In this document: one piece after another, positions 7,348 through 63,537 of the stretch | Layout of the letters: each line of letters begins with the position of its first letter | How positions within the stretch are numbered: position 1 is the stretch's first letter | Assembly: GCA_013112575.1 (NCBI GenBank) | Contig: JABFGG010000007.1 | Coordinates: 184,934 to 248,933, forward strand | Direction of reading: 5' to 3' | DNA length: 64,000 bases | DNA from: Chloroflexota bacterium | GTDB taxonomy: Bacteria > Chloroflexota > Anaerolineae > Anaerolineales > UBA11579 | The notes under the pieces: generated by a model | What the model saw: the letters and a program-made list of their open reading frames with translations, nothing else | Databases searched by the model: none | What the model was told of the DNA's origin: nothing | Position numbers and translations under genes: made by a program

Positions 7348-7420
7348 GGGCCTGTAGCGCAGTTGGGAGCGCGCATCAATCGCACTGATGAGGTCGCGGG
7401 TTCGAATCCCGCCAGGTCCA
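7348..7420 (+). tRNA. tRNA-Ala (anticodon CGC)
   Basis: GGGCCTGTAGCGCAGTTGGGAGCGCGCATCAATCGCACTGATGAGGTCGCGGGTTCGAATCCCGCCAGGTCCA. It folds as a cloverleaf by hand: anticodon loop ATCGCAC, G3:U70 alanine identity pair, T-loop GGTTCGAATCC. CCA is not encoded. Confidence 0.9.
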
Positions 7421-7455
7421 CTGGCAAGGTCGAAAACTTGCTGAACGCAGTACCT

Positions 7456-7528
7456 GGGCCCATGGCGCAGTTGGGAGCGCGCCTCAATGGCATTGAGGAG
7501 GTCGTGGGTTCGAATCCCACTGGGTCCA
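7456..7528 (+). tRNA. tRNA-Ala (anticodon GGC)
   Basis: GGGCCCATGGCGCAGTTGGGAGCGCGCCTCAATGGCATTGAGGAGGTCGTGGGTTCGAATCCCACTGGGTCCA. Anticodon loop ATGGCAT, G3:U70 pair. CCA is not encoded. Confidence 0.9.
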
Positions 7529-32577: not shown

Positions 32578-32697
32578 CTTTTGGCAACGACCTACTCTCC
32601 CAGGGGGCTGCCCCCCAAGTACCATCGGCGCTGGCGAGCTTAACTGCCGGGTTCGGGATGTAACCGGGTGTACCCTCGCCGCTAAAGTCACCAAAAG
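32578..32697 (-). rRNA. rrf: 5S ribosomal RNA
   Basis: The reverse complement reads CTTTTGGTGACTTTAGCGGCGAGGGTACACCCGGTTACATCCCGAACCCGGCAGTTAAGCTCGCCAGCGCCGATGGTACTTGGGGGGCAGCCCCCTGGGAGAGTAGGTCGTTGCCAAAAG. The conserved CCGAAC and GGGAGAGTAGG blocks are present, helix I closes, and a U-run follows. Confidence 0.9.
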
Positions 32698-32797
32698 ACT
32701 TTATTTCACAAAGATATGTAGTTGTGTCCTACTGAACAGACAGTGAATACCGATACAGGTTCTTTTTCAAGGAAAATCTCCGAGTTCTCCACATCAC

Positions 32798-35758
<2,961 letters not shown>

Positions 35759-36145
35759 ATTACATGTGATGTGGAGAAATCGAAGATTTTCTCATTTGAG
35801 AAAAAAACCTTTGATTGTTAATTGTTATTTGAAATCGGTTTTGTCTATTCAGTTGGTAAAGTTCTGGGCGGAAAAACCTTAGTTTTTCCACGTTTCAGCA
35901 AATCGACTGCTGAAAAGCAGGGCCTAAATCTTTAAGCCTTGCTTCTGAGCTTTCGATCTTTATCTTGTAAAGTGCTACCTGCTAAAACAAAAACAACCCG
36001 GCGCACCGCCAGGTTGGTAGAAAACCAAAATGATGGTGGCTATATGGATCTCGGTTGCTTCTCCGTTGTTTTTAGCAGATGTTTCTCCGTTTACTTATTG
36101 TTCTTTATCTCAGGTGGCCTTCCATTTTGGAGGACCACACATCAG

Positions 36146-36218
36146 TGGAGATGAGGGGACTCGAACCCCTGACCCCTGCCTTGCAAAGGCAGTGCTCTCC
36201 CAACTGAGCTACATCCCC
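36146..36218 (-). tRNA. tRNA-Ala (anticodon TGC), in the rrn spacer
   Basis: The reverse complement is GGGGATGTAGCTCAGTTGGGAGAGCACTGCCTTTGCAAGGCAGGGGTCAGGGGTTCGAGTCCCCTCATCTCCA. Anticodon loop TTTGCAA, G3:U70 pair. Confidence 0.95.
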
Positions 36219-36236
36219 AGAACCCGGGATGTGTAG

Positions 36237-36310
36237 TGGGCCTGAGAGGACTCGAACCTCTGGCCTCTGCGTTATCAGCACAGCGCTCTAACCAGCTGAG
36301 CTACAGGCCC
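36237..36310 (-). tRNA. tRNA-Ile (anticodon GAT), in the rrn spacer
   Basis: The reverse complement is GGGCCTGTAGCTCAGCTGGTTAGAGCGCTGTGCTGATAACGCAGAGGCCAGAGGTTCGAGTCCTCTCAGGCCCA. Anticodon loop CTGATAA. Confidence 0.95.
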
Positions 36311-36596
36311 AGGGTACGGGTATTTTGGTAAAGGACGCAAACGAGATACTCGTTTGCTTACTGCAATTTGGCGAAGCCAAATTTTGCCTAAGCAAAACCA
36401 GAAAGGTTTTGCGACCTTAACCGCTGAAGAGTGATAAGAAGCAGTCTGCGATTCCGCCTCGCCACCGCAGCGAGACTTGGGGTGTATGTGGCTTTGCAGC
36501 CAGCATATCTACCCCTGGGTTTTTGGAGTGGAGCGGTCTCTCTGCATCACGGCAGCGCAAGCGCTGCGAATGCTGGAGAGTGCTCGGGTGCTCCAG

Positions 36597-38104
<1,508 letters not shown>

Positions 38105-54497: not shown

Positions 54498-55238
54498 TCA
54501 GTCTTCGCCGCGTAACTTACGTCCTTCAGCCTTGAGCTTCTGGAAGAACTCCGAGTCGGCGATCTCGCCCACGTCCTGGGCGCGTTTGGCCTGGTCGATC
54601 TCGACTTTAAGCTGCTGCAACTGGCTCTTCAATTCCGCTTCACGTGCCCGGATACCTTCCACCATTTCGAAGAATGTGCCTAAAAAGCGATTGGCACGCT
54701 GGCCATCGGGGCTGCCCGCATCGGGCGTATCTGTCTGTACCCCTTTGATCTGTTCTTCCACAAAAGCATAATCACCGTCGGCGATGCGCGTGCTCCACTC
54801 GATAGACCGTTCAATGTAAGTCGTGGCAAAGCGCAAACGGTCGATGGCGTTGCGCGTCAGATACACAGCCAGTTCCGGGTGGCGGTTGAGCACATCCAGG
54901 AAATCGGTGCTGCTGAGTTTCAGGAGGCTGGCATCACTCAATGCCACCACACCCGCAGAACGCGGTTTCTGGTCGAGGATGGCCATCTCGCCGATCACGC
55001 TGCCCGGCCCTACCTCGTTGAGCACCACTTCCTGCCCGTCCGCACCGGGCGCAACCATTTTGGCACGCCCTTCTTGCAAGAGAAAAAGAGCCTCTCCCGG
55101 ATCACCTTTATGGAACAGGGTCTGGGTCGCCTTCAATGAAACGGCCTGCATTTTATCGAGCAGCTCCACGAGCACCTCATCCGGCAAGTCGGCGAAGAGT
55201 TCCAGTTTGCGAAGTTCTTGGGTGCTGGTATTAGTCAT
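54498..55238 (-). CDS. Cyclic-nucleotide-binding (CAP_ED) domain protein with a C-terminal coiled-coil module and no DNA-binding domain
   Basis: 246 aa. cNMP pocket GPGSVIGEMAILDQKPRSAGVVA. The C-terminal ~48 aa are a coiled-coil, ..QLKVEIDQAKRAQDVGEIADSEFFQKLKAEGRKLR. Confidence 0.8.
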   Translation of the reverse strand: MTNTSTQELRKLELFADLPDEVLVELLDKMQAVSLKATQTLFHKGDPGEALFLLQEGRAKMVAPGADGQEVVLNEVGPGSVIGEMAILDQKPRSAGVVALSDASLLKLSSTDFLDVLNRHPELAVYLTRNAIDRLRFATTYIERSIEWSTRIADGDYAFVEEQIKGVQTDTPDAGSPDGQRANRFLGTFFEMVEGIRAREAELKSQLQQLKVEIDQAKRAQDVGEIADSEFFQKLKAEGRKLRGED

Positions 55239-55356: not shown

Positions 55357-56904
55357 ATGGATGCGCCCAACGACACCATCTCCCCATTGATCCACCTTGA
55401 AGCGCGCCTGCGTAACCTGCTGCCTGCCAAGCTGTACGCCGGAGTGTGGATCAACCCCACCGTCAGGAACCTGACCCGCGTCTTTAACCACCTGCGCACC
55501 CTGCAGCGCATCCTCTACGATTACCTACCGCGCCAGGTACTCACCGACCTGCCACTCCCTGGACAAACACGCTTTACATGGGAAGAAGGCACGCTGATGT
55601 TCACCGACCTGGCCGGTTTTACCCCGCTATTGGAGGCCAATGCCAGCCACGGCAAGGAGGGCGCACAGGTCTTGCTGGACGTGCTTAACGGCTATTTTGC
55701 AGAAATGCTGGGCATCGTCAGCAAAGCAGGTGGCAACCTGCTGGAGTTCACCGGTGATGCCTTGTTGGTCCAGTTCCCCACCGACCGCAAACACAGCGAC
55801 ACCAGCCGTGCCGTGCGCGCCGCCTTGCGCATGCAGCGCGCTATGCAACAATACGAGAAGATCGAGGTGTTGGGTGAGCAGCATTCTCTCGGTATGCGCG
55901 TCGGCCTGCACGTCGGCCAATTCCTCACCGCCGACGTTGGCACACCACAGCGCATGGAACACGTCCTACTGGGATCATCCGTGTTGGGCGCTAAACATGC
56001 CGAGGGGGCCGGAAAAGTAGAACGCGTCAGCCTCAGCCTCGCAGCACAAGAACGTGTCGCTACTCACTTCAAGTTTGAAGAACATGGCGATGAACACGTG
56101 CTGGCCGTGGACAACTTCACCGAAGAACAGCTCGGCGACTATGACATCATCCCCTCCCGCCATCGTCTGCCCAGCCTGATCCTCTTCGATACCAGCAAAG
56201 AGGGTCTGGTTCAGGCCATTGCCGACGCCATTGATAAAGTTGAGCCTTTAGCCTCTTATTTGCCACGCGGCGTGCTTAAGCTGCTCGTCGAGAATGCCGC
56301 CAACCGCCGGCTACCCCCCGATTTCCCCTTTGCTACAGTGATGTTTATCAACCTGTTGGGATTACCGGACATGCTGGCCGATCAGGACGAAGCATCCGCA
56401 CAGGAGGTCATCGCCACCTTTTCCCGCGTGGTCTCCCTCATCAACGCCGAGGTTGAAGCGCGCGGCGGTATCATGAAAAAAGTCACCTATCATCACGCTG
56501 GGCCGGACATCATGGTCATCTTCGGCGTGCCGGACTCGCACACTAACGACACCTCCCGCGCTGCCCAGGCGGCCCTCTCCATTCGCGAGATCGTGGAAGA
56601 CCTGGGTGAACTGAGTATTGGCGAACATCACAGCCAGCTTACCTGCCACATCGGCATCGCCAACGGGCGTGTCTTCGCCGCCGAGTTTGGCGAACCGCAG
56701 GGCCGTCGCGAATTTAACGTGATGGGTAACGTGGTCAACACCGCCGCCCGCCTGATGGATTTTGCCAAGAGCAACCAGATATTACTTACCGAAGGTGCCC
56801 AGGAAGATTTACAGGCTGAGTTCGAATCTAAGAAGTTAGAAGGGGTAACACTAAAAGGACTTTCAACCACCCTGACGCTCTACGAGCTAGGCCAGGCGCG
56901 CTAA
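55357..56904 (+). CDS. Class III adenylate/guanylate cyclase with two tandem cyclase-homology domains
   Basis: 515 aa. CHD1: LMFTDLAGFT...EFTGDALLV. CHD2: VMFINLLGLP...VMGNVVNTAARL. Confidence 0.8.
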   Translation: MDAPNDTISPLIHLEARLRNLLPAKLYAGVWINPTVRNLTRVFNHLRTLQRILYDYLPRQVLTDLPLPGQTRFTWEEGTLMFTDLAGFTPLLEANASHGKEGAQVLLDVLNGYFAEMLGIVSKAGGNLLEFTGDALLVQFPTDRKHSDTSRAVRAALRMQRAMQQYEKIEVLGEQHSLGMRVGLHVGQFLTADVGTPQRMEHVLLGSSVLGAKHAEGAGKVERVSLSLAAQERVATHFKFEEHGDEHVLAVDNFTEEQLGDYDIIPSRHRLPSLILFDTSKEGLVQAIADAIDKVEPLASYLPRGVLKLLVENAANRRLPPDFPFATVMFINLLGLPDMLADQDEASAQEVIATFSRVVSLINAEVEARGGIMKKVTYHHAGPDIMVIFGVPDSHTNDTSRAAQAALSIREIVEDLGELSIGEHHSQLTCHIGIANGRVFAAEFGEPQGRREFNVMGNVVNTAARLMDFAKSNQILLTEGAQEDLQAEFESKKLEGVTLKGLSTTLTLYELGQAR

Positions 56905-58218
56905 CATTTCCTGCCGCACAGCCTGCGCATCCTCGATATTTTCCCCCACAACTAGATAACCGAAGGATCCCATCTCCAGCGCCGAGGTCAGTGTGAGGAT
57001 CACGCCGCGTTGCTGCTCATCGATGGGATACAAAAGGCCCTCAAAAGCATTTTCTAGCCCAACCAAGTCAGCAATTCCATTGCTCTTAAGTTTGTTCTGG
57101 CTGAAGACCGCCACCTGTTCCAGATAGTCTGGGCCAAAAAGCTGCATGAGGAATTCATGCACGTAAGTGCCGCCCGTCCGCCGTGCGTTGATCTCCACCA
57201 GATACAAATGCCCATCATCCCCCACAATGGCGTCCAGGTCAAAATGCCCCACGTAACCCAGAGCCTGCACCTGCGCCGCGATAGTTAAGCCCCAATCTTC
57301 AAAGCCTTCATACCAGGCTTCCTCAAACAATTCTTTTCCCAGGATCACACCCGCAAAACGCCCCGAATCCTCAAAGTGCTGGTTGCTCAAATAGGTAATT
57401 ACGGGTTTGCCATGATCCATAGCAGGCACATAGAACTCCAGTGATGGCGAGACAGCATCCCGTGAGGGGATGATCTCCTCAACCACATATAGGTCTTCCT
57501 GCATGAAGGCATTGCGCTGCAAAATCCCAAGGATATCTTCGGCAGCTTGCAATTCTTCAAGAGACAAGAATAGGTTCCCCACCCCACTACCGCCCTGGTT
57601 GGCCTTGACCACACAACCTTTGCCCTCCGCTTTGAACCACTTGGCTGCCTCGGCGGCCTGTTTCACGTTGTGGCAGATGAAGCCAAAAGGCAATACATCT
57701 TCGGCATCCAACCACTGGTGTACCAGCACACGAAAACCCACCTTGGAGTCCAGATAATCTTTCAACCACAGATTCTCCGGAGTCGGGCTTTCCGGCAGGC
57801 AGATGTTCAAGCCATATTCGGTTTCAAGTGTATGAGACAATTGCAGGAACTCGGGCGTGGAGGCATAGGGCACCAGCGCCAGTTTTTTTTCAGGCCCGGC
57901 ATGGGCCAGCAGGCGCTCTAACAGCTCCCCATCATTCAATATGTCCTGGCTTAATAAGAAACTGGGCTTGTCAGGGTAAAGACAGTGCGTATCTACATAG
58001 CCCCACCGCTCGCTCAATCGCTCAGCATCACCAATCGGTGATGTGGAGATAAGCAATTTCTCGCGCCCCAGCCACCATAAGCCGTGGTCGCCGTTAAAAC
58101 GCCGGTCCCAGATGGTGGCGTCGTCGCCGGTGCGGCTGAGGAAACCGTGAAAAGTCTCTAGATAATTATGGACAACCAGCGTGGGTATAGCCTGGCTGTC
58201 TTCGGGCCATGGAGACAA
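56887..58218 (-). CDS. ATP-grasp fold ligase (carboxylate-amine/peptide ligase-like; possibly PGM1-related with a pre-ATP-grasp N-domain)
   Basis: About 443 aa if TTG 58218 is the start. The longer ORF to 58350 would overlap the upstream gene, and there is no in-frame ATG after 58232. VVKANQGGSGVGN (ATP-binding loop) and LYLVEINARRTGGT (ExN Mg site). The PGM1-like assignment is from memory only. Confidence 0.6.
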   Translation of the reverse strand: MSPWPEDSQAIPTLVVHNYLETFHGFLSRTGDDATIWDRRFNGDHGLWWLGREKLLISTSPIGDAERLSERWGYVDTHCLYPDKPSFLLSQDILNDGELLERLLAHAGPEKKLALVPYASTPEFLQLSHTLETEYGLNICLPESPTPENLWLKDYLDSKVGFRVLVHQWLDAEDVLPFGFICHNVKQAAEAAKWFKAEGKGCVVKANQGGSGVGNLFLSLEELQAAEDILGILQRNAFMQEDLYVVEEIIPSRDAVSPSLEFYVPAMDHGKPVITYLSNQHFEDSGRFAGVILGKELFEEAWYEGFEDWGLTIAAQVQALGYVGHFDLDAIVGDDGHLYLVEINARRTGGTYVHEFLMQLFGPDYLEQVAVFSQNKLKSNGIADLVGLENAFEGLLYPIDEQQRGVILTLTSALEMGSFGYLVVGENIEDAQAVRQEMLARLA

Positions 58219-58231
58219 TTGCGCCGCCTGT

Positions 58232-59272
58232 CTATTCGTCCTGGTCGCGTTCCTGACGCAATTTGGCAGCGCGCGATTGCAATTCACGGAAGAAATCGGT
58301 TTCCACGATCTCATCCACCTGTTCGCTTTGCTGGCCTTTATCAATCTCAATACGCAGCTCGGCTACCTGTCGCAACAGCTTTTGCTCGCGCTCGTAGACC
58401 TTTTCCACCATGATGTCGAACACATCCGCCAACCGCCCGATCTCATCCCGGAAGCGCTGCGCACCGATCTCCGACAGGTCCTGCTCATAATCGCCCTCGC
58501 CGATAAGCTCTGCCGCATCGGTAAGCTGCGCAATGGGGCGTGTGAATATCTGCGAGAAAGCAAATACTAGAATAAATAAGATTGCATAGGTTATCAAGAA
58601 AGCTGTAAGCATCTGGCTGAGAATTGATTGGCGCACGTTGTCCACATATTCCGCCCGGAAGTCCACACCCACCGCCGCCACGATTTCTCCCTGATCATTC
58701 ATCACAGGCGCATAAGCCGAGACCCAGCGCCCAAAGCTATCGGTGTAAGTATCAAATTCGCCCTGATCGTTTAAGCGGAAGGTGAGTTCATCGAGGCCAC
58801 GGATAAGTGAACCTGTACTGGTATACGGCTCCATAAAACTGGCGGAACGGTCGTCATCGTAGCGCGCCCACAGGTCAGCCACGAAAAAGACTTCGTTTTC
58901 ACCTTCGCCACGAATGTACACGTAAGGCCAGGCGCGCGGCTCGATCTGATGCACCACTTCCAGCCAATCCAGTTGGTTATTGAAACGCTGATCGTCCGAA
59001 TAGCCCGCGTCGTTAGGCACGCCATCCGCTGCTAAGGCCAGCAACTCTTCATGATTCACGCCCTCCACCGCTGCCTGCACCGTGTCGCTCAGGTCTTCCT
59101 GAATGCGCCCCAGAGCCAGATTAGTGGCAGTAGTGAAGAACCAGTAGAAGGCTGCCGCAAATACCACGCTGAACAGCACCGTGAAGCCGATCAGCAGTTT
59201 CCAGCGTAAGCTAAAGAAAGAAGACCTCTTTACGTCCCCGTTGTCTGTAGTGCTCAGGTTATTCTCGGCCAT
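58232..59272 (-). CDS. Membrane sensor: TM - periplasmic Cache-like domain - TM - HAMP - coiled-coil, with no recognisable output domain
   Basis: 346 aa. Two TM helices flank a ~170-aa extracytoplasmic domain (GRWVSAYAPVMNDQGEIVAAVGVDF is Cache-like). HAMP: TRPIAQLTDAAELIGEGDYEQDL..RDEIGRLADVFDIMVEKV. C-terminal coiled-coil: ..ELRIEIDKGQQSEQVDEIVETDFFRELQSRAAKLR. Confidence 0.65.
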   Translation of the reverse strand: MAENNLSTTDNGDVKRSSFFSLRWKLLIGFTVLFSVVFAAAFYWFFTTATNLALGRIQEDLSDTVQAAVEGVNHEELLALAADGVPNDAGYSDDQRFNNQLDWLEVVHQIEPRAWPYVYIRGEGENEVFFVADLWARYDDDRSASFMEPYTSTGSLIRGLDELTFRLNDQGEFDTYTDSFGRWVSAYAPVMNDQGEIVAAVGVDFRAEYVDNVRQSILSQMLTAFLITYAILFILVFAFSQIFTRPIAQLTDAAELIGEGDYEQDLSEIGAQRFRDEIGRLADVFDIMVEKVYEREQKLLRQVAELRIEIDKGQQSEQVDEIVETDFFRELQSRAAKLRQERDQDE

Positions 59273-59297
59273 AGGGAACTACTCCTAAATAATTGCA

Positions 59298-60641
59298 TCA
59301 AGACTCAAGTTTCTTCAATAGGACAGAATCGGTGCGGCGTTGGCGGCGCTTGAGACGCCAGCTCAACAGGCTGCTTTCATAAACCGACCGCAGGCGCAGG
59401 ATGGCCCAGAAGGCCCCGATAGAGGCCAGCACGGCCACTGCCAGGTAAACGATGCTCATATCCCGGTTCTGTACCAATCCGATAATGACGATGGCTCCGG
59501 CCACAACACAGGCCAGCATGGTGCCGACTGAAGGCAAGTAACTTTCCATCATAGTGCTTACACGCCCGCGCCGTTCTTCAGGCACCAGGCCCTGGAAGGA
59601 CTTGCGTCCAGATTCATCCACGGTGTCGCGCACCAGTTTGACCGTCACCATAGCGATGACCGCCATCGAAAGTCCCGGCAACAGGATCATACCGATTGCC
59701 CCGATCAATGCAGCTGCGGGGAAGATGAAGAATGTATTTTTTAACTCCATGGCCGTGATCATGCGACTGGTGATGAAGGCCTGGATGCCCAATGCCACCA
59801 CGGTCACACCCAGACGGTACAGGCTGAAGAATTGTTGGTAACTGGCCTGCGTGGTGAAGATGGCATCACTCACTACCAGGAAGCGGAATTCGATGATCGT
59901 ATCGGCCACAGCCAAAAAGAGAATGGCGTACATCATGAAGCGGAAAGAAGGCACGTCCGTCATGAAATCCCAGCCTTCTCTTAAGGTTTTTCTTATAGGT
60001 TCGCTTTGCTGCACCGTTTTGCGAATATCGACATTGCGCAAGCCCATTGTGATGAGCACATAGGCCACCAGATAGATCACAATATTGATCAGCAAAATTT
60101 CTTCAAGGGGAATGCCCAGTGCCAAAAAGATCGAGGGGGAGATCGCCGCGATGCCAATACCCAACAGTTTGCCCACAAAATTCCAACTCGAGATCACCGG
60201 GAAGAGGCGTTTGCTCTGGTCAAGCTTAAAGATGTCATTGGCCAGTACCCAGAAGATCAGCGGATAGAGTACATATTGCTGTTCAGCGATCAGGTACATC
60301 AGAGAATAATTCAGCCAATCCGGTGCGCCGATCCAGAACATAACCCGCAGGACCAGGAAGATCACGGCAAAGGCCAATGTTGCCCAACGTATCAGTTTGA
60401 CTCGGTCAAAACGGTCCACGATCAGGCTTTGCAATCCACCCAGCAGCATGATCAAGGCATAATCGATGAACAGGATCAGCAGAATCTGGTTGACACCACC
60501 TGCATTGAGGAAACCGCTGACAGAAACAATCCCCGCGATTTGCATTGCTATAGAGTTGATTAGCAATACAAAACCCAGCACGAAGACCAAAGACCCCTCC
60601 CCGGACTGGATGCGCAGTAGCCGCATAAGAGCTTGTCTCAT
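59298..60641 (-). CDS. 12-TM carrier of the MFS-like / ATP:ADP-antiporter (TLC, Npt1/Npt2)-related type
   Basis: 447 aa. The N-terminus LLRIQSGEGSLVFVLGFVLLINS and the overall pattern resemble the TLC-like membrane module that is often fused to cNMP-binding/HEAT domains in other bacteria. This assignment is by resemblance only. Confidence 0.5.
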   Translation of the reverse strand: MRQALMRLLRIQSGEGSLVFVLGFVLLINSIAMQIAGIVSVSGFLNAGGVNQILLILFIDYALIMLLGGLQSLIVDRFDRVKLIRWATLAFAVIFLVLRVMFWIGAPDWLNYSLMYLIAEQQYVLYPLIFWVLANDIFKLDQSKRLFPVISSWNFVGKLLGIGIAAISPSIFLALGIPLEEILLINIVIYLVAYVLITMGLRNVDIRKTVQQSEPIRKTLREGWDFMTDVPSFRFMMYAILFLAVADTIIEFRFLVVSDAIFTTQASYQQFFSLYRLGVTVVALGIQAFITSRMITAMELKNTFFIFPAAALIGAIGMILLPGLSMAVIAMVTVKLVRDTVDESGRKSFQGLVPEERRGRVSTMMESYLPSVGTMLACVVAGAIVIIGLVQNRDMSIVYLAVAVLASIGAFWAILRLRSVYESSLLSWRLKRRQRRTDSVLLKKLES

Positions 60642-60684
60642 AAGCAGTGAGTTTTCTCCTCAAGACCTCTTTATTTAGTCGTTC

Positions 60685-61440
60685 TTAGGCCAGTAAACGG
60701 TCTGCCAGTTTCTGAAGTTCCTGCGTCACCGGATGATCGGGGTATTCCAATGCAAATATGCCCGCACTCGCTAATACCATCAACTCATCGGCATGCGGCA
60801 TCAACGCAGCCACTTCAGTATTATAGGTTTTCCCGATGGTCGCTTTGACTTCTTCAAAATCAAAAACTGCAGGCACTTTATTGACCGCCATCAGCAATTC
60901 CGCTACTTCCAACTTACGTGCCACTTCCACGGTCACACTCGTTCCCAGGTAGTCTTGCTGGTCGGGGCGCAAGATAAGCAGAACAATGTCCGAAATGGCA
61001 ATGGACAATAGCGTTTCCTCGTTCAGGCCCGGATGGGTGTCGATCAATAGGGCGTCCAGTTCCAGCTTCTTGATCAGTTCCTGAAAACCGGAGTCCAAAA
61101 GCCCTACGTCATAACCTTCGCGTAACACGCGTGCAATTTCACCCGCGTTCAGGCTGGAAGGAATCAGGAAGACTTTGCCATCAACAGGAGTCTTGAGGTT
61201 GCCGGTCACGTCATAGGCTGCGTCCGAGATGGAACACTGCCCCCACAGATAATCATTGAGGGAGTTTTTCATGTCGGACTGCTCAAGGCCAAACAGCGTA
61301 TTGATGCCTGGTGATTGGATGTCTGTATCCACTACACCCACGCGCAGGCCCCTTTGTGCCAGCAGGGTTACCAGGTTGGCGGTAGTATTCGACTTGCCTG
61401 TACCACCGCGATAAGAATGTATGGAAATGATCTTTGCCAT
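60685..61440 (-). CDS. ParA/MinD-family P-loop ATPase
   Basis: 251 aa. Deviant Walker A SYRGGTGKSNTTANL, switch regions VVDTDIQSPG and LLIDTHPG. Confidence 0.8.
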   Translation of the reverse strand: MAKIISIHSYRGGTGKSNTTANLVTLLAQRGLRVGVVDTDIQSPGINTLFGLEQSDMKNSLNDYLWGQCSISDAAYDVTGNLKTPVDGKVFLIPSSLNAGEIARVLREGYDVGLLDSGFQELIKKLELDALLIDTHPGLNEETLLSIAISDIVLLILRPDQQDYLGTSVTVEVARKLEVAELLMAVNKVPAVFDFEEVKATIGKTYNTEVAALMPHADELMVLASAGIFALEYPDHPVTQELQKLADRLLA

Positions 61441-61508
61441 GAATGCTTGCTCCTCTCAGGTTATGCACTCTTCCAAAGAGTAATATTAACTAATTGTAGT
61501 TTATCGCT

Positions 61509-62804
61509 TTAATCCTGACTACGCTCGTGGGTTTGCTGCCAACTACGCGGCTCGATGGTGCGCTTTTTCCCCGCCAGCAAACCCGCCACGCCCTGTTGTT
61601 TATTTTCGCGTTGGCGTGCCTGGCAGGCTTCACAGGTTTCCGGGTCGTGAGACTCGTATTCATCGGCCTGGGTATAGGTGCTGATAAAGCCTTCGTAGTT
61701 GCGCACCACCACCTTGTCCTCCGACATGCTCATCAAATAATTGGGCAGGATGGGCACTTTGCCACCGCCGCCCGGCGCATCTATCACGTAAGTTGGGATG
61801 GCATAACCCGAGGTGTGCCCACGCAAGGCTTCCATGATCTCAATACCTTTGGCCACCGGCGTACGGAAATGACCTGCACCCTGCACCAGATCACACTGGT
61901 ACAGATAATAGGGACGCACGCGATTGCGCACGAGGGTATGCACCATATCCAGGATGATATTGGGGCAGTCATTGATACCCGCCATCAACACCGACTGTGA
62001 ACCCAACGGGAAACCGGCATCGGCCAGTTTAGCAACTGCTTGCACAACATCTGGCGCCATTTCTTTGGCGTGGTTTATGTTCAAATGTATCCACAAGGGT
62101 TGGTGGCGGCGCAGCATGTCCACGAGTTCATCCGTGATACGCTGGGGTAGGAACATAGGTACTTTGGTATTCAGTCTCACGATCTCGACATGGGAAATGT
62201 CATTCAGACGCGTCAGCAAATTATCCAGTATTTTGGCAGGCAAAATCAGTGGGTCACCCCCCGATAACAGCACATCGCGGATCTGCGGGTTGGCTTCAAT
62301 ATAGGCGATCTGCCGTTCATAGTCATGGGAACCAAAATTCTCTGCAGGGTCGCCCACGATACGGCTGCGTGTGCAGAAGCGGCAGTAGCTAGCACATTGT
62401 GTTGTGGTCATCATCAACACACGATCCGGATAACGGTGCACCAGCCCCGGTACAGGCGAATGCTGGTCTTCCGCTAATGAATCGACCATCTGTGCATCAA
62501 AGGAGACCAACTCTTGCCCCAGGGGCATCACCTGTCTGCGAATCGGGCACTGGGGGTCATCCGGGTCCATCAGGCTGGCGTAGTAAGGCGTCACATCCAC
62601 CCGGAAGGCGCCAGGAGCCGACAAGCCTGCGATCTCATCTTCTGTTAGATTGAGGATGGGTGAGAAATCCTCCACGGTATTCAAGCGGTGGCTCAACTGC
62701 CAGCGCCAGTCATTCCACTTCTCCATAGGAACATCTTCCCAGGGAGTTGGCGGCGTTACCAGACGATGCTCTTCATTTAATGCAGTATCTATTTTCGTGG
62801 TCAT
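61509..62804 (-). CDS. kamA: L-lysine 2,3-aminomutase (KamA/AblA family radical SAM enzyme)
   Basis: 431 aa. It is colinear by eye with Clostridium KamA over the full length: WNDWRWQLSHR, VTPYYASLMDPDDPQCPIRRQ, SPVPGLVHRYPDRVL, radical SAM CASYCRFCTR, DVLLSGGDPL, RPYYLYQCDLVQGAGHFRTP, GYAIPTYVIDAPGGGGK, and a C-terminal Cys cluster. Confidence 0.9.
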   Translation of the reverse strand: MTTKIDTALNEEHRLVTPPTPWEDVPMEKWNDWRWQLSHRLNTVEDFSPILNLTEDEIAGLSAPGAFRVDVTPYYASLMDPDDPQCPIRRQVMPLGQELVSFDAQMVDSLAEDQHSPVPGLVHRYPDRVLMMTTTQCASYCRFCTRSRIVGDPAENFGSHDYERQIAYIEANPQIRDVLLSGGDPLILPAKILDNLLTRLNDISHVEIVRLNTKVPMFLPQRITDELVDMLRRHQPLWIHLNINHAKEMAPDVVQAVAKLADAGFPLGSQSVLMAGINDCPNIILDMVHTLVRNRVRPYYLYQCDLVQGAGHFRTPVAKGIEIMEALRGHTSGYAIPTYVIDAPGGGGKVPILPNYLMSMSEDKVVVRNYEGFISTYTQADEYESHDPETCEACQARQRENKQQGVAGLLAGKKRTIEPRSWQQTHERSQD

Positions 62805-62961
62805 TCTTGCTTCTCAAGTGTTATAAGAAATTCACAATGGATATACAATTAGTTGAGAGAGTTAAGCTAAAAGGGTCGCCAACCGAAAGTATAATAGACA
62901 ATCACATACAAAAAGATTGCATTTACGTAAGACCCTTTTTGGAATTATTTATCGACCAACT

Positions 62962-63537
62962 ATGCAGACACGATACGAAAACGTAGATTACACGAAACTG
63001 AGCGATGAAGAACTTGTAAAACATGCTCAGCAAGGTGCCCTGGATGCCTTTTCTACTTTATATGAAAGGCATCTGAACAGTGTCTACAAACGCGTGTGGT
63101 ATGGTGTGCCCGAGCAAGATGTTGAGGATGTCACCCAGGAGGTCTTCATTGCGGCCATGAAATCGCTGAAGAGTTTCCGGGGCGACGCCAAATTCACTAC
63201 CTGGCTGCGCACACTGACTACCCGTAAAGTAGCAGACTACTACCGGCGCACACGCCGGAAAAGCGCCGATTTATCGGCAGAAATGGAATTGAAAGAAGAA
63301 CACGAAAACCTCCCTGTCCAGGAAAGCGGCCTGAGCACCGTTGAGCGGATTCACTTACAAGATGCCCTCAATCAGGTGCCGGAACATTACCGCGAGGTGG
63401 TTCTGTTGCGTTTTGCAGAAGGTTTGAGCTTCAAGGAGATCGCCCAGGTTCAGGGCAATTCATTGGAAGCCACCAAATCCCTCTTCCGGCGTGCTATTGC
63501 AGCCCTGAAGACACAGGTCGGAGAAAGCCATGCCTGA
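62962..63537 (+). CDS. ECF-type RNA polymerase sigma factor
   Basis: About 191 aa from ATG 62962. Region 2: DAFSTLYERHLNSVYKRVWYGV..EDVTQEVFIAA, FTTWLRTLTTRKVADYYR. Region 4: YREVVLLRFAEGLSFKEIAQVQGNSLEATKSLFRRA. Confidence 0.85.
   Translation: MQTRYENVDYTKLSDEELVKHAQQGALDAFSTLYERHLNSVYKRVWYGVPEQDVEDVTQEVFIAAMKSLKSFRGDAKFTTWLRTLTTRKVADYYRRTRRKSADLSAEMELKEEHENLPVQESGLSTVERIHLQDALNQVPEHYREVVLLRFAEGLSFKEIAQVQGNSLEATKSLFRRAIAALKTQVGESHA

Follow-up and report, generated by a model that had tools for sequence, protein, structure and literature searches.

Genes and enzymes of the cluster

The 64,000-nucleotide stretch analyzed here (the window) comes from a Chloroflexota bacterium (GenBank assembly GCA_013112575.1, contig JABFGG010000007.1) and carries, on its minus strand, a lysine 2,3-aminomutase gene (kamA) followed by genes for a ParA-like ATPase, a polytopic carrier, a Cache-HAMP sensor, and an ATP-grasp ligase. 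The original prediction, made from the sequence alone, held that these five genes form an operon that makes and transports a beta-lysine-containing amide or oligomer, or modifies a target with it. An open reading frame (ORF) listing reproduced all five genes with their coordinates and spacings (gaps of 68, 43, 25, and 13 nt), and the domain calls hold. Co-transcription of the five genes is plausible. A consensus scan placed promoter-like and terminator-like sites at chance level, at which it cannot settle operon structure, and found no terminator-like site in the five-gene gaps. A riboswitch or other RNA upstream of kamA was considered and rejected, as an Rfam scan of the window at gathering thresholds returned only the rRNA operon and tRNAs.

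KamA closely matches the Clostridium lysine 2,3-aminomutase (2A5H; E = 7e-137). Its CASYCRFC sequence (CxxxCxxC, for the [4Fe-4S] cluster and S-adenosylmethionine) aligns with C125/C129/C132 of 2A5H, and the pairwise alignment retains R134, D293, and D330 together with K337. Following the C. subterminale structure, whose numbering we assume, we take the first three to bind the carboxylate and epsilon-amine and K337 to be the pyridoxal phosphate lysine. KamA passes the KamA subfamily model TIGR00238 (340.6 bits; cutoff, 199.2), lies marginally under the AblA equivalog TIGR03820 (522.2 bits; cutoff, 525.4), and falls below the EpmB equivalog TIGR03821 (242.8; cutoff, 369.3). The earlier view of KamA as full length and catalytically intact stands, with the catalytic and lysine-specifying residues all kept relative to 2A5H; by these residues, the enzyme is probably lysine-specific and competent to make beta-lysine. 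As also foreseen, the known contexts of beta-lysine are missing: no GNAT (AblB-type), EpmA/EF-P, or fermentation gene (kamDE, kdd, or kce type) occurs at 54.5–63.5 kb or among ten larger ORFs scanned at 44.4–54.5 kb.

The ligase gene starts at an in-frame TTG (58218) inside the ORF spanning 56887–58350. NCBI annotates the same 443-residue product as a hypothetical protein of a Chloroflexi metagenome-assembled genome (DWQ07_16830; P0001, 100% identity and coverage), and every one of 358 homologs is unnamed or hypothetical. A profile built from 32 homologs, in all of which the ExN/RRTGG catalytic block is invariant, was compared with PDB sequences and matched the Streptomyces protein 8ynd (E = 1.6e-14), named there an "ATP-grasp peptide ligase," as well as PGM1 (2.5e-9) and BesA (3e-4). 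The AlphaFold2 model (predicted local distance difference test [pLDDT], 93.9) gave Foldseek TM-scores, query- and target-normalized, of 0.70–0.81 to 8ynd, 8ynq, and PGM1 (3wvq) and 0.67–0.69 to BesA, compared with ~0.45–0.64 for the remaining ATP-grasp matches listed (PurK, biotin carboxylases, and others). By predicted fold, the last gene would encode a PGM1/BesA-type ATP-grasp amide ligase, in line with the amide- or peptide-ligase assignment made earlier and outside every curated family of known substrate. The protein scores below the thresholds for PreAtp-grasp (PF18604; 18.8 versus 27.5), PGM1_C (PF18105; 12.5 versus 22.5), and ATP-grasp_4; because of this, we regard it as only distantly related within the PGM1/BesA fold class and assign it to none of these families. 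As for the carrier, homologs at 55–64% identity bear precomputed PF03219 (TLC) and/or PF07690 annotations and the JGI name ATP/ADP translocase, and the ortholog in a related locus (L171) matches PF03219.

Module conservation and the aminomutase link

A ligase profile scan of one genome per GTDB species yielded 80 loci, whose neighboring genes were labeled by BLAST and hidden Markov models (HMMs). These loci derive from Anaerolineae, other Chloroflexota, and cyanobacteria, with a few distant homologs in Gottesmanbacteria, Collierbacteria, and an uncultured gammaproteobacterium; the contexts of the distant homologs (L077–L080) proved unrelated and uninformative and were set aside. Among the 66 loci with at least 2.8 kb of upstream sequence, the sensor gene lies directly upstream of the ligase in 56 and the carrier gene upstream of the sensor in 54. 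Because of these counts, the fixed unit is carrier–sensor–ligase. Other genes join it less regularly: in 49 loci with wide flanks, we recorded a ParA-like gene in 25, a cyclase in 11, a cyclic nucleotide monophosphate (cNMP)-binding protein in 11, and a KamA-family gene in 9. The exact order of the window recurs in L003 and L006, so that the predicted five-gene unit is seen elsewhere but is not obligate.

Between carrier and sensor, the gene content varies. A divergent GNAT-like gene of ~245 codons fills this slot in 20 loci (including L011, L012, and L016), a Ddl-like ATP-grasp gene in L020 and L047, and a SET-domain gene in one JGI metagenomic contig. A ligase-less variant (L088) begins with a cyclase and continues as carrier–GNAT–sensor–ParA, the GNAT gene lying at L088:4183–4947. 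Family signals for this slot gene (cluster 8) are weak, with PF00583 detected in 5 of 11 members (best E, 3e-4) and a best PDB match at E = 0.24; it is probably a divergent GNAT. A GNAT and an aminomutase never occur in the same locus among the 80.

KamA-family genes were found in 12 of the 80 loci, 11 of them within 266 nt of a module gene, and fall into three subfamilies. AblA-type lysine aminomutases are encoded in the window, L003, L006, L031, L062, L063, and L068; arginine 2,3-aminomutases (665–672 bits; cutoff, 600) in L067, L070, and L072; and AblA-like-2 aminomutases (490–501 bits; cutoff, 396) in L036, L056, and L059. The sequences of the arginine-type enzymes of L070 and L072 have threonine at the D330 position. 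Placement is just as diverse, with at least eight arrangements that put the aminomutase upstream or downstream and on either strand. On a neighbor-joining tree, the ligase-linked AblA-type genes are scattered over several separate places, and the type of accessory gene tracks the ligase clades. By our own estimate (about one KamA gene per 4-Mb genome), chance would co-localize the two within 10 kb in ~0.4 of the 80 loci. This adjacency is the main support for the reading in which a beta-amino acid feeds the ligase: the recruitment of three aminomutase subfamilies, in at least eight arrangements beside the ligase module, argues for such a hand-off.

L070 and L072 combine the ligase, the arginine aminomutase, and the ParA-like ATPase; here, a histidine kinase and a Lys/Arg/Orn-type binding protein, the latter encoded just upstream of the ligase, replace carrier and sensor. 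The 0.8–1.0-kb gap between ligase and aminomutase genes in these loci (L070:11324–12157; L072:11333–12357) has no conserved ORF. A precursor-peptide gene for a PGM1-like ligase was considered there and rejected, as the small ORFs in the gap are not conserved between the two loci.

A shared helix and its putative ATPase partner

The HAMP domain of the sensor scores 35.8 bits (cutoff, 25), and the AlphaFold2 model (pLDDT, 90.7) has two transmembrane helices and Foldseek matches to a WalK-like model (query-normalized TM-score, 0.62) and to sCache/PAS sensor domains. A Pfam scan found no kinase, methyl-accepting chemotaxis protein (MCP), cyclase, or GGDEF output domain, and the protein had been described as a sensor without output. 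That description overlooked a conserved C-terminal helix of ~50 residues, which has no Pfam model and is a candidate output element. Its consensus (kVy.REq.Lr.QVeeLkIeIDe.KR.kQV.EIVdsdFFqdLq.KAr.mR) contains many invariant E, D, K, and R residues. The same helix occurs in the nearby cNMP-binding protein, with 22 identical positions in a two-sequence alignment and a motif HMM score of 68 bits. Used as a profile, these two window sequences retrieved 1,997 representative proteins (E ≤ 1e-3), of which 714 passed E ≤ 1e-10; among the 150 proteins listed (P0361–P0510), nearly every match ends at the C-terminus or close to it. The architectures that carry it include dCache-HAMP, HAMP, WD40-dCache, and cNMP-binding.

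Motif-bearing proteins were then picked for context look-up regardless of their neighbors, and four had usable flanking DNA. In all four independent contexts (L081, L083, L086, and L088), a ParA-like ATPase gene lies directly downstream of the sensor gene, and a transporter or binding protein is encoded near the pair. A fifth motif contig, recorded without DNA, has a ParA-like gene four genes upstream. Control loci totaling 743 kb contained neither a motif protein nor an orthologous ParA. The apparently cyanobacterial pair at L081:9053–11158 has an amino-acid permease-like transporter as a neighbor and an ArgZ-like arginine dihydrolase in the vicinity, which hints that sensor–ATPase pairs may often accompany basic-amino-acid or nitrogen metabolism.

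The ParA-like protein matches AAA_31 (63.9 bits), ParA (57.4), and CbiA (44.5), all over cutoff, and stays under every NCBIfam equivalog cutoff (MinD, ParA partition, BcsQ, MipZ, and others; best, minD_arch, 83 versus 202). In its orthogroup, the Walker A motif reads S[FY]RGGTGKS: the signature lysine of the deviant form (KGGxxK[ST]) is replaced by arginine. The orthogroup is unusually conserved, with 62–64% identity between Chloroflexota and cyanobacteria, versus 31–42% for the ligase in cyanobacterial loci. We rejected the idea that the protein serves KamA as a reductase of the Fe-S or NifH-like type, since its only cysteine is not conserved and its similarity to Mrp, ApbC, and NifH is confined to the P-loop level. 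Where a positioning-type ATPase had been proposed, the protein is better read as a partner of the helix-bearing sensor class than as a positioning device or an enzyme of the pathway. From sequence and adjacency, we infer that the helix serves these sensors as their output, with the ParA-like ATPase as its partner.

The system, which had been bounded at 56887–62804, reaches on to the cyclase and the cNMP-binding protein (Table 1). The cyclase matches PF00211 in two stretches (E = 3.7e-30), and its orthologs flank the module in 13 of the 80 loci as well as in L088 and the two related loci L170 and L171. The cNMP-binding protein matches PF00027 (E = 2.2e-24), and seven motif-bearing orthologs adjoin the cyclase in related loci. 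The convergent cyclase and ligase genes overlap by 18 nt at their 3′ ends (56887–56904), and the called genes of L170 have the same 18-nt overlap. The gene for the extracytoplasmic function (ECF) sigma factor at the other end is likewise divergent in L010, L013, L026, and L170; the factor is a possible regulator.

Table 1. Features of the kamA–ligase locus and its surroundings (window coordinates)
Feature	Position	Strand	Remarks
Small cNMP-binding protein with sensor-type C-terminal helix	54498..55238	-	motif at 54510-54650
Class III adenylate/guanylate cyclase	55357..56904	+	two cyclase-homology stretches
ATP-grasp amide ligase (predicted), PGM1/BesA fold class, 443 aa, TTG start	56887..58218	-	
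Sensor C-terminal helix motif	58253..58402	-	motif HMM 77 bits
Cache-HAMP membrane sensor, 346 aa	58232..59272	-	first transmembrane helix, single Cache/PAS-like periplasmic domain, second transmembrane helix, HAMP, conserved C-terminal helix
Polytopic carrier, NTT/TLC-MFS-like, 447 aa	59298..60641	-	~11-12 hydrophobic segments (hydropathy profile)
MinD/ParA-superfamily ATPase, 251 aa	60685..61440	-	proposed partner of C-terminal-helix sensors
kamA, lysine 2,3-aminomutase, 431 aa	61509..62804	-	accessory, lineage-variable cluster member
ECF sigma gene-kamA spacer	62805..62916	.	presumed module promoter region; near-identical in L170
ECF sigma factor, divergent from the operon	62917..63537	+	Sigma70_r2/r4 and TIGR02937 matches

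The window stops 1.2 kb past kamA. Elsewhere, it holds a complete rRNA operon on the minus strand (16S, two tRNAs, 23S, and 5S; 32579–38104) and two further tRNAs at 7348–7528.

A proposed beta-amino acid ligation pathway

Reading the ligase substrate, the product, the direction of transport, and the helix–ATPase interaction from gene order, catalytic residues, folds, and conservation statistics, we hold with roughly even confidence that the locus is a composite in which a conserved module, a signaling layer, and a variable building-block enzyme make a beta-lysyl amide or peptide. In Anaerolineae-type Chloroflexota and cyanobacteria, the module would comprise the NTT/MFS-like carrier, the Cache-HAMP sensor, and the PGM1/BesA-type ligase. 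In the signaling layer, the sensor and the cAMP-receptor-like protein would act through the MinD/ParA-like ATPase by means of their common helix; one ATPase switch controlling the module may thus integrate two inputs, a ligand outside the cell and cAMP made by the adjacent cyclase. The building-block enzyme would vary: a lysine aminomutase here and, elsewhere, an arginine 2,3-aminomutase, an AblA-like-2 enzyme, a divergent GNAT, or a Ddl-like ligase. KamA would convert L-lysine to beta-lysine. The ligase, working through an acyl phosphate, would join beta-lysine to a second partner, either an amine or a carboxylate, to give a small amide or peptide. The carrier would transport either this product or a precursor of it across the membrane monitored by the sensor. 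A bolder version, which we regard as rather unlikely, is that helix-ended Cache-HAMP and cNMP proteins constitute an unrecognized signaling scheme with a MinD/ParA-like output in place of a kinase, cyclase, or MCP; it would govern the synthesis and transport of an ATP-grasp-made beta-lysyl (elsewhere beta-arginyl) compound, possibly a carrier-exported signal sensed by the same Cache domain. Relative to the original prediction, the observed cluster is confirmed and its interpretation supported in part, with product and transport direction still conjectural.

Several observations weigh against this reading. KamA-family genes are infrequent, being present in only 9 of the 49 fully flanked module loci. 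The neighborhood test suggested with the original prediction was also run from the KamA side: among 80 metagenomic loci encoding the closest KamA relatives (59–72% identity), none contained the ligase, carrier, sensor, or orthologous ParA. In the nearest relative of the locus (L170), whose ParA, carrier, sensor, and ligase are 97.6%, 91%, 89.6%, and 81% identical to those of the window, gene order is the same from the ECF sigma gene to DegV, minus kamA, and all the other genes are intact. The sigma–parA spacer of L170 aligns with the sigma–kamA spacer, then the last ~20 nt of kamA, and then the kamA–parA spacer. Comparison of L170:3412–3677 with window positions 61441–61530 and 62805–62916 thus points to a clean kamA deletion that left the last ~20 nt of the ORF, on a contig of 2.58x coverage. 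kamA is also missing from L171, and both loci keep ParA–carrier–sensor–ligase together with the cyclase and the cNMP protein. Since kamA is missing from L170, L171, and the majority of neighborhoods, KamA is by these comparisons accessory, and the module would work without an adjacent kamA. The window carrier has no significant Pfam match (MFS_1 only at E = 0.031), and characterized NTT/TLC members transport nucleotides, not peptides (PMC5381601).

Two observations on L170 stand apart. Its spacer has an additional ~30-nt insert able to form a hairpin (CAGGGAGTTCCATTGGACTCCTGG). Of eight syntenic proteins, the ligase has diverged most between the window and L170 (81% versus 86–98% identity), with 53 of 53 family-invariant residues kept; from this single comparison, the divergence could reflect altered constraint after kamA loss.

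The KamA-side loci are informative in another respect. Almost all of the top 36 (64–72% identity) that have enough downstream sequence read KamA, then a Ddl-like ATP-grasp gene, and a GNAT gene of 165 codons follows ~2 kb beyond the Ddl-like gene in 15 of 38 loci with enough flank. At L105:8944–12863 (compare L090–L125), the order is KamA, Ddl-like ATP-grasp, second Ddl-like ATP-grasp, and 165-residue GNAT, with an OmpR-type regulator gene shortly upstream of KamA; the proteins of this cluster all score below curated cutoffs. It looks like another uncharacterized beta-lysine ligation pathway. The window KamA nests within the Ddl-linked KamA clade on a neighbor-joining tree. Because the clade of the window KamA otherwise precedes Ddl-like ligases, the hand-off from KamA to an ATP-grasp enzyme would recur with two ligase families. 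For a beta-lysine feed to the ligase, then, repeated independent adjacency of KamA-family and ligase genes speaks in favor, and the accessory standing of KamA, missing from most module loci, speaks against.

Other functions were considered for the cluster. It is distinctly unlikely, in our judgment, that it makes a beta-lysine-derived compatible solute, a dipeptide or amide analog of N-epsilon-acetyl-beta-lysine or N-acetylglutaminylglutamine amide, with the sensor reading osmotic or ionic stress and the carrier taking up or releasing the solute. KamA is a borderline AblA, the osmolyte-type aminomutase, and marine sediments or marine cyanobacteria are the source of some loci; the module is, however, equally present in groundwater, soil, and activated-sludge genomes, and without further modification a beta-lysyl amide would carry a positive charge. 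The N-acetylglutaminylglutamine amide route uses a GNAT plus an ATP-grasp enzyme, and GNAT and aminomutase do appear as alternative accessories of the module, although they are never found together. To our knowledge, cAMP and ParA-like signaling are not features of known osmolyte operons.

We consider very unlikely a role in protein modification, in which the ligase (elsewhere the GNAT, SET-domain, or Ddl-like protein) would mark the sensor, the carrier, or another protein, for example by placing beta-lysine on a carboxylate or terminus, as an adaptation or regulatory mark comparable to those of RimK, TTL, or chemoreceptor methylation. The carrier–sensor slot with its GNAT (20 loci), Ddl-like (L020 and L047), or SET-domain gene suggests this, as all three families include protein-modifying members. 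So do the tight spacing of sensor and ligase genes (13 nt here; stop-to-stop frames abut or overlap in many loci), the abundance of invariant charged residues in the helix, the "peptide ligase" name of 8ynd, and the activity of PGM1, which ligates onto peptide N-termini. Such a role accords poorly with the ligases of L054, L066, L045, and L065, which occur without sensor or carrier, and with L070 and L072, which lack both a motif-bearing sensor and a carrier; nor did the gaps examined contain a conserved small ORF or precursor peptide, and no target residue was identified.

Equally improbable is a pathway of uptake and conjugation: the sensor would detect a compound outside the cell, for instance a basic amino acid or something nucleotide-like, which the carrier would import and the ligase would conjugate intracellularly for assimilation, trapping, or detoxification, with KamA only diversifying nearby lysine catabolism. 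Characterized NTT/TLC carriers are importers or exchangers (PMC5381601), the neighbors of motif-bearing sensors elsewhere include an amino-acid permease, a SulP transporter, and substrate-binding proteins, and the ligase genes of L070 and L072 follow that for a Lys/Arg/Orn-type binding protein. This leaves unexplained why three 2,3-aminomutase subfamilies were recruited directly beside the ligase, and no catabolic kamDE, kdd, or kce gene is present among the neighbors scanned. Least probable is a fortuitous, recent juxtaposition of a functionally unrelated kamA with the other four genes. In its favor are the absence of the module beside all 80 closest KamA relatives, the kamA deletion in L170, and a promoter-like site in the kamA–parA spacer. 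Against it stand the 12 loci with their three subfamilies, eight or more arrangements, and 11 of 12 distances within 266 nt, compared with the ~0.4 loci estimated for chance, and the position of kamA between the conserved upstream region of the module and parA.

If the proposed ligation of a beta-amino acid under control of a sensor–ATPase layer is correct, it would give beta-lysine and beta-arginine a new fate, ATP-grasp ligation outside nonribosomal peptide synthetase, AblB, and EF-P chemistry. It would also provide the first functional handle on free-living NTT/TLC-like carriers, so far uncharacterized, and, through a widespread sensor/ParA-like pairing (~2,000 representative helix proteins), a possible new output mode for bacterial receptors. 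These questions are directly testable in cultured organisms that carry module genes: Caldilinea aerophila (ligase), Leptolyngbya sp. AN02str (L062) and Vacuolonema iberomarrocanum LEGE 07170 (L070) with ligase loci, and Longilinea arvoryzae with a carrier homolog.

Compared with known systems, an aminomutase feeding an amide ligase is known logic in kind, and the signaling companion is undescribed. In the searchable literature, we found no description of the carrier–sensor–ligase trio, the helix, or the ParA-like partner of the helix; this is weak evidence of novelty, since subscription journals lie largely outside that literature. ParA/MinD ATPases are known to work with chemoreceptor-type proteins, as in PpfA–TlpT of Rhodobacter sphaeroides and ParC–ParP of Vibrio. 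The window ATPase is likewise of the deviant Walker A type and genetically paired with HAMP/coiled-coil sensors. It differs in its arginine at the signature lysine, in an unproven positioning role, and in a setting that lacks an MCP signaling domain and che genes, the partner element being the C-terminal helix of Cache-HAMP and cNMP proteins. An association with cyclic-nucleotide-binding proteins, including NTT-HEAT-cNBD fusions, has been reported for free-living NTT/TLC carriers, and a link to adenylate cyclase was proposed (Major, Embley & Williams 2017, PMC5381601). Homologs of the window carrier are annotated as ATP/ADP translocase/TLC; the window protein itself is unfused and below the TLC threshold, and sensor and ligase neighbors are not described in that work.

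Among beta-lysine systems, EpmA/EpmB-dependent beta-lysylation of EF-P is distinguished by the score of the window KamA under the EpmB cutoff and by the lack of EpmA/EF-P among the neighbors scanned. The AblA/AblB pathway to N-epsilon-acetyl-beta-lysine in methanogens and some bacteria is closer, as the window KamA is AblA-type, with a borderline score and all lysine-binding residues. No AblB-type GNAT is encoded in the operon, the four flanking genes, or the ten larger ORFs scanned, however; the partner is an ATP-grasp ligase, and sister loci have a divergent GNAT in place of the aminomutase, not alongside it.

PGM1/BesA-type ligases make amide bonds with unusual amino acids as substrates. 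The window ligase shares with PGM1 (pheganomycin; 3wvq), 8ynd/8ynq, and BesA (L-propargylglycine–L-glutamate ligase; 8yi6) a predicted fold that includes the N-terminal pre-ATP-grasp part, as well as profile-level similarity, but at an identity of only ~17–22% and, as noted, under the PreAtp-grasp, PGM1_C, and ATP-grasp_4 thresholds. The present family comes from Chloroflexota and cyanobacteria, not from actinomycete antibiotic clusters, and its partners are a carrier, a sensor, and a ParA-like ATPase, with no precursor peptide gene seen. The arginine 2,3-aminomutase model TIGR04468 is based on BlsG of blasticidin S. The cyanobacterial loci L067, L070, and L072 have no nucleoside-antibiotic genes and encode instead a ParA-like ATPase together with either a sensor or a binding protein. 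They nevertheless pair an above-cutoff arginine 2,3-aminomutase with the window ligase family, again suggesting a beta-amino acid that proceeds to an amide-forming step.

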